UHGV virus genome: UHGV-0136707
Strand: one strand, 5' to 3'
DNA from: a virus
Length of the DNA stretch: 42,322 bases
Below are positions 31,313 through 33,772 of this stretch, in pieces. The notes below the pieces were generated by a model, which made no database searches, was not told the origin of the DNA, and was given only the letters and a program-made list of their open reading frames with translations. Made by a program: the position numbers and the translations under genes. Position 1 is the first letter of the stretch, and each line of letters opens with the position of its first letter.

Positions 31313-31420
31313 TTACTGTTTCCTAAGTGCTTCAATGGCGCTAACAATACCGCCTACAACTATGGCAACAATGATAATGAGAACAATTGGATACTTATCT
31401 GCAAAATCCCAGAAGCTCAT
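31313..31420 (-). CDS. tciC: 35-aa hydrophobic peptide (tciC-like)
   Basis: Hand-translated MSFWDFADKYPIVLIIIVAIVVGGIVSAIEALRKQ. Its ATG overlaps the stop of the preceding ORF by 1 nt. Confidence 0.4.
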   Translation of the reverse strand: MSFWDFADKYPIVLIIIVAIVVGGIVSAIEALRKQ

Positions 31421-31584
31421 CACTGATCCTTCGAGGCTGGTTTAAATATCGGCCATACCAATGTTACAGCTACTGCTACCAACGCCCCGTCGGATAAAAC
31501 CGACAGGATTGTGCTGGTGAAATCCACCAGCACAGATAGCACGAGAAAAACCAAAGCCAGAATTAGACGTGCTTTTATAACCAT
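31420..31584 (-). CDS. tciB: 54-aa hydrophobic peptide (tciB-like)
   Basis: Hand-translated MVIKARLILALVFLVLSVLVDFTSTILSVLSDGALVAVAVTLVWPIFKPASKDQ. Its ATG overlaps the tciA stop by 1 nt. Confidence 0.4.
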   Translation of the reverse strand: MVIKARLILALVFLVLSVLVDFTSTILSVLSDGALVAVAVTLVWPIFKPASKDQ

Positions 31585-32009
31585 CAGATATACTGTTCCA
31601 GTGGCAATTGAAGAGCCTGGGCAATTTTCTTCAATTGCTCCTGCTCTTCTGCCCCAATGCCATCCTGGTCAGCAATATCAATGCATAGGCACAGAACATC
31701 TACCGCATCATTAGTTCCAGACACGTCAGCCAGTTCACGTAAAGCCTGGGCATTCGCTCGGCGCGGCGAGGCTTCATATTGAGCGCGAATATTGGCGCTC
31801 ATCTGGGCAATTTCACCGGAGAACGGCGCAAAGGCAGGAAGTGCTGCAATGGTTTTTTCCAATACTGCAATTTCTTTCGCATCGCAGGTGCCGTCAGAGT
31901 ATGCAATGGAATATGCGCCCCAGACAGTCGCTTCCACCGCATCACGGTTTTCCATCTTCTTGACTCCGCCAGCCGCTTTGCGGAATTTCTTTTTGAGAAT
32001 GCCGAGCAT
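31584..32009 (-). CDS. tciA: TerB-like protein
   Basis: 141-aa ORF with TerB-type features (DG..D..E). First of three translationally coupled genes between the tRNA region and tRNA-CAU/ban. Confidence 0.7.
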   Translation of the reverse strand: MLGILKKKFRKAAGGVKKMENRDAVEATVWGAYSIAYSDGTCDAKEIAVLEKTIAALPAFAPFSGEIAQMSANIRAQYEASPRRANAQALRELADVSGTNDAVDVLCLCIDIADQDGIGAEEQEQLKKIAQALQLPLEQYI

Positions 32010-32189
32010 TTATTAACCTCATTACTGGTTGGGAAATAAGGTTGCGGTGCCGGGTGCCTCCCGGTGTCCTTTGGCTGGTTATCCACCGTGGACGGGGAAA
32101 TAAGGAGAAATAATGGACAGATATAACCATTTCCCCGCGTGCGCTTAGCCGCATTCACCGCAACGGAAAGAGCATTCCTGGTGGACCTG

Positions 32190-32935
32190 TAGATTGGGAT
32201 ATGAACCCGTTACAGGAGAATGCTCTTACCTGTTACGTGCTCCGTTTCGTGGAGCTAACGGCGGGTGATCGGGCCGCACCAGACTGGACTTATTTCAGCG
32301 TTATGCTCATGCCAGAGAATCAAACTGTGATGGTCGGTGCTGAACTCCGACACAGGGTTGTAGCAAGCCCCGCAAAGCGCGCACTACTGTAGTTGCGGCA
32401 CATCAGCCTGTGCATTCACCACAATGTTGAGAACACTGGTTGTCACGCTGCAACGCAACATTTATTCGTAGATTGGGATATGACCCCGTTACGCCAGTGT
32501 TCTCAACGTTGTAGTGCCGGTTACGGTTCCGGCCAGGCCTCTTCCTCAACGGGGTGTTCTCCATACGGACTACCGTTTATTGGTCGTTCCTGCGGTTTAT
32601 GTTGTGAAGCCAGATGCTTATCTTCTGGTTGCTTCAAAGAGCTGCACTTCATCACAACGGTAAGAGAACTCGATGCATTTAAGCCAAGCCCCATAAGGGA
32701 GAATGCCCTTACCTGTTGTGTTGTGATGACCGGTGCTGATCTCCGGCTTGCGGTTATTTCAGACTCTCACGGGCGTTTAATTGCCCCGCCGAACAGCTCT
32801 TTTCCGCAATAGCTGCAATGTCTTTCGCGCATCAGCCTGCGCATTCATCACAACGGTAAGGGTACTTCGTAGGGATTCGAACCCTCTGCCAAGCACGGCG
32901 ATCTCCGACGTCGCAAAATACCCTTACCTGTTGTG
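32190..32935. repeat. tRNA-like degenerate repeat region inside the tRNA-ban operon
   Basis: Direct repeats GTAGATTGGGATATGA(A/C)CCCGTTAC at about 32196 and 32468; CCCTTACCTGTTGTG-like copies at about 32226, 32707, 32921 (and 33364); CATCAGCCTG(T/C)GCATTCA(C/T)CACAA at 32402 and 32829; a T-arm-like GGGTTCGAATCCC on the minus strand at about 32865. Confidence 0.5.
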
Positions 32936-32936
32936 T

Positions 32937-33012
32937 TGGTGCCGATTAACGGACTCGAACCGCTGACATCCTGCTTACAAGGCAGGCGCTCTACCAACTG
33001 AGCTAAACCGGC
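32937..33012 (-). tRNA. tRNA-Thr (UGU)
   Basis: Hand-folded 76-nt cloverleaf: acceptor GCCGGTT/AATCGGC, anticodon arm CCTGC-CTTGTAA-GCAGG, T-loop GGTTCGAGTCC, 3' CCA encoded. Confidence 0.85.
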
Positions 33013-33014
33013 AT

Positions 33015-33090
33015 TGGCGATGGCGGATGGATTTGAACCATCGACCCGTTGATTAACAGTCAACCGCTCTAACCGCTGAGCTACACCATC
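33015..33090 (-). tRNA. tRNA-Asn (GUU)
   Basis: Hand-folded 76-nt cloverleaf: acceptor GATGGTG/CGCCATC, anticodon arm GTTGA-CTGTTAA-TCAAC, T-arm GATGG-TTCAAAT-CCATC, 3' GCCA encoded. Separated from tRNA-Thr by 2 nt. Confidence 0.85.
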
Positions 33091-33744
33091 ACTTGCCGGG
33101 TACGTCTCCGGCGAGGGCTTCCACCTCCGTATGCTTTTCGGCGCACCGCGCCCTGGCTGCAATTCGGTAACAGGGGATGCACAACCCTGGCTTCCAGCGT
33201 GATTAGCGCCTTCAGCATGACGGGATATACCCGTAAATTCGTGGAACTGTACCCAAAGTGCTGTTAAGCACCGCTGTTACGCTGAAAAGAAGACGCAACA
33301 GGAAAGGACGCTGACCAACAGATGGCCCCTTCTCGTTCATCTGGTTAATCACACCAGCGCCCTTACCTGTTGTGCCTCCCCGTTCCCTAATACACAGACG
33401 GGGACACTCTGCGGTCGATTTTTTGACGGGGGACGACTCATACCCCGTGGCGTCTGGCTTCTTAGGCCGCTACCATCATCAGATCATCGTTTGCATTTAC
33501 TTTAATGGTCAGTTTCTAAACCGCCGCAAAGTCGCTAACCATGACGAAAACCCTGAAAAAAACGCCCACCCGAAGATGGGCAAACTGGAAGCTCGTAACG
33601 CACTTCGGCGTTGCCACTTAGGCGCATGGTCAACCTGGCAACTCGGTGGTTTGTCTGGGAGGACTAGGCCCAGCCATGCTTACCGCCGCGCCTGTCGCGG
33701 CTAACAGCTAAATCGCTCTATAAATCACGATTCATTGAGGCGAT

Positions 33745-33772
33745 ATTACACTAATAAATTTATTAGAGCAAT
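33745..33772. promoter_or_regulatory. bipartite overlapping C1 operator upstream of the tRNA-tci-ban operon
   Basis: Perfect 17/17 operator in reverse orientation (33756-33772) overlapping a 15/17 forward copy (33745-33761). Sits at the dmt stop, upstream of the tRNA/ban transcription unit; P1 ban is known to be C1-controlled. Confidence 0.7.

Follow-up and report, generated by a model that had tools for sequence, protein, structure and literature searches.

What do three small overlapping genes, set between a tRNA-bearing leader and the helicase gene ban, contribute to a P1-like phage? The genes in question, tciA, tciB and tciC, are encoded by the virus genome UHGV-0136707, a stretch of 42,322 nucleotides to which we refer as the window. 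In a megablast comparison with a phage collection, positions 31000-34000 are 98% identical to phage P1 (AF234172, NC_005856) and are covered over their full length by the P1-like phage-plasmid JL22, and by its sequence the window is that of a P1-like phage. Collinear with the window and in like orientation, the P1 record runs from the end of dmt through the divalent C1 operator Obanab (earlier name Op72ab) and its promoters P1ban and P2ban to a “dicF-like region”, tRNA-Asn, tRNA-Thr, the antisense open reading frames (ORFs) plp and upl, tciA, tciB, tciC, trnI (anticodon CAU) and ban; the three tci products are named “by homology” only. A preliminary description of this DNA agrees with that record in its gene names, operon context and C1 operator; its placement of tciABC downstream of the operator and between the leader repeat region and tRNA-CAU/ban is confirmed, and all these features lie on the minus strand. 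As such, the tciABC finding restates published GenBank annotation and was already known. What our analysis adds to the P1 annotation is a conserved and coupled tciA-tciB pair, a lineage-restricted tciC and the cargo nature of the slot that holds them.

The tciA-tciB pair and tciC

On the comparative evidence, tciA and tciB are an old, mobile two-gene unit, and tight coupling is among its conserved properties. We gathered 110 loci via TciA (16 species-representative genomes, 80 IMG/VR entries and the rest exact-protein look-ups). Of 108 loci in which TciA is complete, 106 have a TciB-like ORF behind it; the other two are a decayed copy and a contig end. Stop and start codons overlap in all 63 distinct tciA-tciB pairs, 52 times as a 4-nt xTGA and 11 times as TGATG or TAATG; with every one of these pairs, taken from other phages and prophages, in agreement, the overlap is beyond chance. 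The pairing extends to distant relatives: in six loci representing three TciA relatives at 30-40% identity, five carry a TciB-like ORF that overlaps or lies 11 nt away, and these distant ORFs retain a DFT...S...D motif (for example LVDFTSAILSVLSDG, GIDFTNMLMSVVSD and LVDFASRILSMAADG). A word-indexed homologue search with TciB itself returned P1-type sequences only; the diversity came from the TciA-anchored loci.

In the window, the tciA/tciB and tciB/tciC junctions both read TGATG, with stop and start sharing one A. The 54 and 35 codons of the small ORFs, the 1-nt overlaps and the hydrophobic nature of the small products thus stand as first described, and only the label “ATGA/TAATG type” was inexact. 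TciB matches DUF3927 (PF13064) with E=2.7e-29 and 101.3 bits, residues 2-54 aligning to profile positions 1-53 of 53, and its hydropathy profile has two hydrophobic segments with an invariant DFT...S...DG motif in the turn between them, which makes it a membrane hairpin of 50-55 residues across the pairs. Median pairwise ratios of nonsynonymous to synonymous substitution rates (dN/dS) are 0.057 for tciA and 0.28 for tciB. Judged by this constraint, tciB is a real gene under purifying selection. The earlier argument from coupling to the reality of the small ORFs is borne out for tciB by the DUF3927 match and purifying selection; for tciC the overlap alone is weak evidence, and a homologue in phage D6 carries the argument instead.

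TciA was previously labelled TerB-like, and this label holds. The protein scores 28.4 bits against Pfam TerB (PF05099; gathering score 24.4, E=2.1e-6), matches phrog_632, “tellurite resistance”, at E=7e-62, and adopts an all-alpha, TerB-like fold in an AlphaFold2 model built from 54 homologues (predicted local distance difference test, pLDDT, 86.7; six helices; residues 1-14 below 50). Hydropathy analysis found no hydrophobic segment, seven of the first 18 residues are Lys or Arg, and a GAGG Shine-Dalgarno sequence lies 7 nt upstream of the start. When TciA alone or a 54-sequence profile was compared with the sequences in the PDB, no TerB structure came up, and the best hits were weak centrin/EF-hand-like matches and noise; TciA is thus a distant member of the family, and its fold was tested via the model. 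An exhaustive profile search yielded 252 cluster representatives at E<=0.001 (102 at E<=1e-10), and the full-length relatives are mostly stand-alone proteins of 140-150 residues. TciA carries two acidic DG...E motifs (D39, G40, E46 and D116, G117, E122), presumed to bind metal; in an alignment of 24 relatives, the most distant of them 29% identical, G40 and E46 never vary, and D39, G117 and E122 are conserved in at least 90%. The same alignment keeps an N-terminal MFG.F.KK...ENRD and a C-terminal LGL.L..YL. Three cysteines (C42, C107 and C109) never vary among the close TciA relatives but are not kept in the wider family, and were dropped as a functional motif. An NCBIfam search gave nothing useful for the Tci proteins, and PADLOC-DB v2 holds no family that matches TciA, TciB or TciC at E<=1. 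One E. coli prophage (L119, 477-974) has a second tciA copy upstream of DUF968/RusA/Q genes, in which the following tciB has decayed and an orphan TerB-like gene is left.

tciC differs from the pair in its distribution, and what had been described as a three-gene unit is better seen as the conserved tciA-tciB pair with tciC as a P1-lineage addition. It occurs only with the P1-type TciA of the P1/P7/D6 lineage, and in the non-P1 contexts among the collected loci no hydrophobic ORF follows tciB. We count its 35 residues from an ATG (an in-frame GTG lies one codon upstream) that is preceded at 6 nt by the Shine-Dalgarno sequence AAGGA within the end of tciB; the peptide combines an acidic N-terminus, one hydrophobic segment and a short basic C-terminus. 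A chance origin of the tciC ORF in the space between tciB and the tRNA, leaving two genes only, would fit its absence from every non-P1 context, its omission by the NCBI Prokaryotic Genome Annotation Pipeline even in plasmids 100% identical to the window, its 12% divergence between window and P1 (0.2% in tciA, 2.4% in tciB) and a dN/dS of 0.64 between these two P1-type alleles, which at 13 differences is almost neutral. On the P1-allele divergence and dN/dS alone, tciC would be doubtful. However, its six DNA variants are all open over 35 codons with conservative substitutions and no indel or stop, and TciC matches phrog_23152 (E=1.9e-26), its only match. In phage D6, where the region is far more diverged, an ORF of 36-37 codons overlaps the tciB stop (ATGATG), is preceded by AGGA and encodes a peptide that starts M(M)DFW...DK.P, sharing the FW..DK.P motif with the TciC of the window, and continues with one hydrophobic segment and a basic tail. 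This D6 architecture supports tciC reasonably well as a gene for a single-pass peptide, and we judge it real on these sequence grounds, giving little credence to the chance ORF.

As a separate observation, tciC lies within a patch of raised divergence from P1 (31090-31444, minus strand) that extends from the 3' end of tciB into the spacer ahead of ban, where 18 differences fall between 31090 and 31178; the tRNA that it encloses shows no difference. The patch has the appearance of recombination with a P1 relative at a greater distance.

Genomic settings and possible role of the cassette

Homologues of the cassette reside in four settings. P1, P7 and D6-type phage-plasmids carry it in the ban operon; in contigs of ~60 kb it lies among replication-type genes (RNase H, Dam, RNase T); in a Yersinia prophage it adjoins a repressor gene; and in the commonest E. 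coli setting, lambdoid prophages, it sits between the Q antiterminator and the holin gene, with tRNA genes or the small RNA (sRNA) STnc100 upstream. These lambdoid tRNAs include homologues of the CAU tRNA (86% identical) and of the Thr tRNA (81%) of the window, and in a recent preprint a TerB gene independently figures among the genes that are conserved next to the prophage sRNAs PasA and PasC. In the sole lambdoid locus scanned (L115), intrinsic terminators flank tciAB on both sides. The DNA upstream of tciA is unconserved between contexts; the cassette thus has no promoter or leader of its own that these contexts share. TerC, TerD, TerE and TerZ are absent among the neighbours in P1, P7, D6, the ~60-kb contigs and the lambdoid and Yersinia prophages. 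Among complete E. coli genomes, 674 of 5426 (about 12%) match the region, with 513 of the 772 matched places on plasmids. Within P1-like phages tciABC is replaceable cargo, as sequence comparison indicates: a published survey counts it as one of eight variable regions, missing from about half of the P1 subgroup 1 plasmids.

The same slot has other occupants. In vB_EcoM-Ro157c2YLVW (L112, 2818-3862), RCS47 and MH422554 it is filled by a 78-residue protein with two transmembrane segments and an SPFH/Band 7 lipoprotein, called a serine protease or a lipoprotein in GenBank. This pair sits between the same hairpin modules and the same tRNA.

As for function, the preliminary description held that it is not well defined in P1, and this is borne out: the only direct data that we found in the literature are a genome-wide CRISPR interference (CRISPRi) screen (PMC10695390) and transcript measurements (bioRxiv 10.64898/2025.12.28.696737). 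The screen found tciA, tciB and tciC non-essential for P1, and RNA sequencing of P1vir infection measured transcripts of all three genes at 10 and 20 min. We found no published tests of tciABC for tellurite resistance, colicin resistance or phage inhibition. Since the P1 record annotates the promoter as C1-controlled, tciABC should be made in lytic growth and not in the lysogen. Expression in lytic growth is the favoured assignment from the annotated operator, and it agrees with the late-operon position in lambdoid prophages. The ban gene is itself silent in wild-type lysogens and is not known to be constitutive except in operator (bac) mutants.

The reading that we put forward, though at somewhat less than an even chance, is that of three real, coupled genes whose products form a membrane-anchored, Ter-like complex during lytic growth, accessory to the phage and not essential. 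Coupled translation would yield roughly matched amounts of the three products. TciB, in P1 together with TciC, would anchor TciA at the cytoplasmic face of the inner membrane, helped by the basic N-terminal tail of TciA. In P1 the complex would be made early in lytic growth once C1 repression lifts, and in lambdoid prophages by Q-dependent late transcription just upstream of the holin gene. Acting as a minimal module of TerB plus a membrane partner, it may sense or buffer cation or membrane stress and so shield the energised membrane until programmed lysis. The SPFH cargo found in the same slot is, by analogy, also a membrane pair and fits such anchoring loosely.

Several points weigh against this reading. 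The CRISPRi knock-down had no effect on P1 plaque formation (PMC10695390), about half of the P1 subgroup 1 plasmids do without the cassette, and the tciC alleles are almost neutral, as given above. A strong terminator-like hairpin stands between Pban and tciABC. If both termini of TciB are cytoplasmic, its conserved acidic residues fall in the periplasmic turn and little cytoplasmic surface is left for TciA. For TciA, there is no sequence-detectable relative in the PDB, and the Pfam TerB score is just 4 bits over the cut-off. In an AlphaFold2 model of a natural TciA-TciB frameshift fusion (P0003), the TciB part reaches a pLDDT of 50-64 and is hence uninformative on docking. The contact between TciA and TciB and the link of the Tci proteins to a phenotype are, at this stage, proposals from sequence.

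A bolder version, which we consider unlikely, takes TciA-TciB as a widespread, phage-borne minimal “Ter” module, in which a TerB-fold sensor on a 50-residue hairpin would act in lytic growth to keep the inner membrane energised and intact until lysis, countering premature holin triggering, pore-forming colicins, superinfection or membrane-depolarising abortive-infection systems. If true, the module would serve to counter stress or defence, and a stand-alone TerB protein would for the first time have a defined role. In any case, an ancient and strictly coupled pair of a TerB-fold protein and a DUF3927 protein, present in many enterobacterial phages, offers a small and tractable system for the role of the TerB domain, which is still unclear even in the classical ter operon.

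Other explanations have to be set against the lytic-phase membrane complex. The preliminary description had hinted at stress and phage-defence phenotypes, and a lysogenic-conversion or defence cassette would act, as the ter operon does, in tellurite or colicin resistance or in superinfection exclusion. TciA belongs to the TerB family, the literature ties the ter operon to tellurite resistance, colicin resistance and phage inhibition, and the moron-like positions (bracketed by terminators in L115), the variability among P1-like plasmids and the homologues in the 674 E. coli genomes would all suit such cargo. Yet the contexts examined all lack a neighbouring TerC, TerD, TerE or TerZ gene, and no PADLOC family matches; the annotated C1 repression means that the genes should be silent in P1 lysogens, and in lambdoid prophages tciAB lie in the Q-dependent late region, where a simple scan found no promoter just upstream. 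With no PADLOC match, no ter-operon neighbours and a promoter annotated as C1-controlled, the hint is unsupported and a defence cassette is distinctly unlikely.

A role in lysis timing, with TciB and TciC acting in the membrane together with holin or antiholin under regulation by TciA, appears quite improbable, even though the peptides are of holin-like size and tciAB stand directly upstream of lysis genes in two lambdoid lineages with unrelated holin families (Phage_holin_2_1 in one, Phage_holin_8 with holin_3_7 in the other). The gap between Q and holin attracts cargo in general, stx for example; in the ~60-kb contigs and in Yersinia the cassette is not next to lysis genes, and in P1, P7 and D6 it belongs to the early ban operon, away from the lysis genes; moreover, a Pfam search at E<=1 ties neither TciB nor TciC to a holin family. 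Finally, toxic membrane peptides that block growth or cell division and are neutralised by TciA, as a toxin-antidote or host-shut-off pair, would suit small, hydrophobic products tightly coupled to a soluble partner and the “inhibition of cell division” that the P1 annotation offers as a possibility by homology, but are highly doubtful given that selection holds tciA, the upstream gene, much more tightly than the peptides (dN/dS 0.057 vs 0.28), that TciB retains an invariant polar motif and not hydrophobic character alone, and that an orphan tciA with a decayed tciB exists while we found no orphan tciB.

Structured RNAs in the ban-operon leader

The leader of the operon offers a more consequential lead than tciABC itself, namely an unannotated RNA resembling transfer-messenger RNA (tmRNA). 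Its tag frame (33494-33462; GCA AAC GAT GAT CTG ATG ATG GTA GCG GCC TAA) encodes ANDDLMMVAA* and combines a start-less frame, an opening Ala resume codon and a hydrophobic, Ala-rich C-terminus. The SsrA tag of E. coli is ANDENYALAA. Homologues of the surrounding 170 nt occur in 298 phage records, including unrelated virulent phages (Ackermannviridae, Schitoviridae, Drexlerviridae, Akiravirus, Roufvirus and an Acinetobacter phage). Among six homologues that were fetched, five are intergenic and the Acinetobacter phage element is overlapped by a hypothetical ORF on the opposite strand; in three of the six phages, tRNA genes lie within a few hundred bases of the element. A search pattern that left the tag itself unconstrained matched at least 120 IMG/VR loci, with 91 distinct copies among the matches listed. 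In 89 of these 91, exactly ten codons and a stop directly follow UAAAU, and the 89 copies among the matches listed encode 17 peptides of the form AN[DE][DEN]xx[LM][MVAI][AV]A. In seven aligned sequences, read by eye, an in-frame TAG precedes the tag by eight codons with no ATG, GTG or TTG between, and the other reading frames of the RNA are not conserved in length. Downstream of the tag stop, a hairpin and the pairing of its loop with downstream bases make an H-type pseudoknot, several pairs of which change on both sides (covary). One candidate for the stem of a second pseudoknot was mis-registered in the alignment and is not claimed.

The tRNA-like part of such an RNA is less apparent. The Rfam model tmRNA_permuted scores 24.1 bits on the tag RNA of the window, and its scores in 7 phages span 24-33.5 bits; these, like those of the six fetched homologues, all fall below the gathering score of 47. 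ARAGORN at default settings called no tmRNA; at relaxed thresholds it did so, with an unconvincing acceptor stem that lacks the G:U pair and without CCA. A canonical tRNA-like domain (acceptor stem with G3:U70, T-arm and CCA, and a model at gathering score) was not found, and those acceptor-like matches that were checked with ARAGORN are ordinary tRNA-Ser genes. From its sequence, the tag RNA may be a two-piece or otherwise non-canonical tmRNA, a tag-only RNA relying on another piece, or a decoy. In two Bp4-like phages (L211 and L218), a T-arm followed by ACTGATA-ACCA or ACTGGTA-ACCA lies ~430 nt downstream of the tag motif; the element receives no tRNA call from ARAGORN, and its complementarity to the 5' end of the tag RNA is only 6/7 with wobble pairs. 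It could be a tRNA-like piece of the tag RNA. None of six tag peptides (five from the IMG/VR scan, one from phage phiEa2809) appears in the searchable literature, and the phage tmRNAs of the accessible literature, which excludes the 79 phage entries of a 2025 database, are those of mycobacteriophages and Bacillus phage G. Should this tag frame, start-less and of constant length, serve in trans-translation, a tagging RNA would be encoded by many phages themselves, the textbook phage P1 among them, with consequences for how they deal with stalled ribosomes and with proteolysis by the host.

The tag RNA lies just downstream of the terminator-like hairpin, which itself follows the C1-controlled Pban at a distance of ~170 nt. 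Such a hairpin implies a short, repressor-controlled sRNA, with read-through needed to express the tRNAs, tciABC and ban. The operator copy ATTGCTCTAATAAATTT at 33772-33756 and its inverted partner beside it are base-for-base identical to P1 68667-68694, the annotated divalent C1 operator, and according to the P7 record this operator governs not ban alone but also the tRNAs.

Between the tRNAs and tciA follow long bulged hairpins, modules B-E (Table 1), of the form CAAC-N-GGUAAGRGCAUU...variable insert...AGUGCUCUUACC-GUUGYGRUGAAUGC. The window has four of them and P1 three, and a degenerate copy lies near 33290-33374. P7, D6, a Stx2 phage, mEp460 and other prophages have versions with differing yet complementary stems; the inserts also vary among phages, and some hold T-arm-like hairpins. 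The 5' half of the module also closes the tag RNA, and in other phages the 3' half often precedes it. Roles as processing sites or as tRNA-like decoys are guesses. A YrlA match (Rfam, 22.7 bits) merely spans two tRNAs and was set aside. The ORFs upl and plp (“putative lipoprotein”; 32201-32392 and 32393-32812, plus strand) run antisense to the hairpin modules, vary in length (63 and 125 residues in P1, 47 and 110 in JL22, 63 and 139 in the window), have no Pfam match and, on this evidence, are probably not genes. The STnc100-like leader of tciA is partial and lacks the terminator of the sRNA; a complete STnc100 lies upstream of tciAB in one lambdoid prophage (L116, 4239-4451).

Two leader segments are shared with lambdoid phages: the pre-ban spacer (31049-31232, minus strand; 81% identical) and the interval between modules B and C (32719-32867, minus strand; 96-97% identical). 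Both lambdoid counterparts (L113 3001-3443, L114 2501-2886) lie just downstream of the cI repressor gene, ~130 nt apart in Stx2a_1447 and ~60 nt apart in mEp460, where hypothetical ORFs are annotated on the opposite strand.

Table 1. Genes, RNAs and control elements of the tciABC region, in window coordinates and in order of transcription.
Feature	Position	Strand	Basis or detail
Obanab (Op72ab), bipartite C1 operator	33745..33772	minus	ATTGCTCTAATAAATTT + inverted partner; overlaps Pban promoters and dmt stop codon
Terminator-like hairpin and T-run, end of the P1 “dicF-like region”	33555..33585	minus	GCCCATCTTCGGGTGGGC then T7; P1 misc_feature 68791-68892
tmRNA-like tag RNA, unannotated	33359..33553	minus	5' GGGUUUUCG...GCGACUUUGCGG, tag frame, pseudoknot, end CACAACAGGTAAGGGC
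tRNA-Asn (GTT)	33015..33090	minus	ARAGORN; Rfam 72.3 bits
tRNA-Thr (TGT)	32937..33012	minus	ARAGORN; Rfam
Hairpin module B	32849..32935	minus	T-arm-like GGGTTCGAATCCC in apical part; minimum free energy (MFE) -50.7 kcal/mol, z -5.1
Hairpin module C	32653..32720	minus	In 168-bp stretch (32670-32837) missing from P1; 1.9 standard deviations below shuffled sequence
Hairpin module D	32419..32514	minus	Stem sequence unlike B, C and E, pairing kept; inverted repeat I1; MFE -55.6 kcal/mol, z -5.3
Hairpin module E	32159..32237	minus	MFE -41.9 kcal/mol, z -3.8
STnc100-like structured 5' leader of tciA	32043..32162	minus	Rfam RF02076, 39.2 bits (gathering score 47), positions 31-147, E=2.6e-6
tciA, 141-residue soluble TerB-like protein with basic, disordered N-terminal tail	31584-32009	minus	
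tciB, 54-residue two-helix membrane hairpin (DUF3927)	31420-31584	minus	Start shares one base with tciA stop
tciC, 35-residue single-pass membrane peptide	31313-31420	minus	Start shares one base with tciB stop
tRNA with anticodon CAU (trnI in P1)	31234..31309	minus	ARAGORN, Rfam, P1 record; begins 3 nt past tciC stop
ban, DnaB-type replicative helicase, last named operon gene here	29584..30948	minus	ORF, from 30954 downward; start set by length of P1 ban CDS

Comparison with known systems

The closest known system is P1 itself, whose tciA, tciB and tciC (AF234172/NC_005856; terB, upf69.4 and upf69.6 in P7) share with the window gene order, leader, trnI-ban and C1 operator. TciA is 100%, TciB 96% and TciC 74% identical between window and P1, and other P1-like contigs carry the exact alleles of the window. 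What sets the window apart from P1 is the second tciC allele and one extra upstream hairpin module, from which no functional difference can be argued on sequence.

In its commonest E. coli context, tciAB is placed like the morons that lambdoid phages carry in their late region between Q and holin, where stx also resides; in contrast to these, the P1 cassette belongs to an early, repressor-controlled operon together with ban. The NfeD/SPFH-type pairs of Ro157c2YLVW and RCS47 occupy the same slot as tciABC and likewise combine a small membrane protein with a larger membrane-associated partner, but they are unrelated to the Tci proteins, and the lipoprotein signal of the SPFH protein should direct it to the periplasm, whereas TciA has no signal peptide.

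A further likeness is to TerB of the terZABCDEF operon (PF05099; PDB 2ou3, 2h5n), with which TciA shares the all-helical fold, the duplicated acidic DG...E motif and the pairing with a membrane protein. It differs in that TciA scores barely over the Pfam cut-off with no sequence match to a solved TerB, and tciA has no TerC, TerD, TerE or TerZ gene nearby. TerB of the ter operon acts together with TerC, an integral membrane protein. The partner of TciA is instead a 50-residue DUF3927 hairpin, and tciAB(C), unlike the ter operon, is phage-borne and placed in lytic-phase operons.

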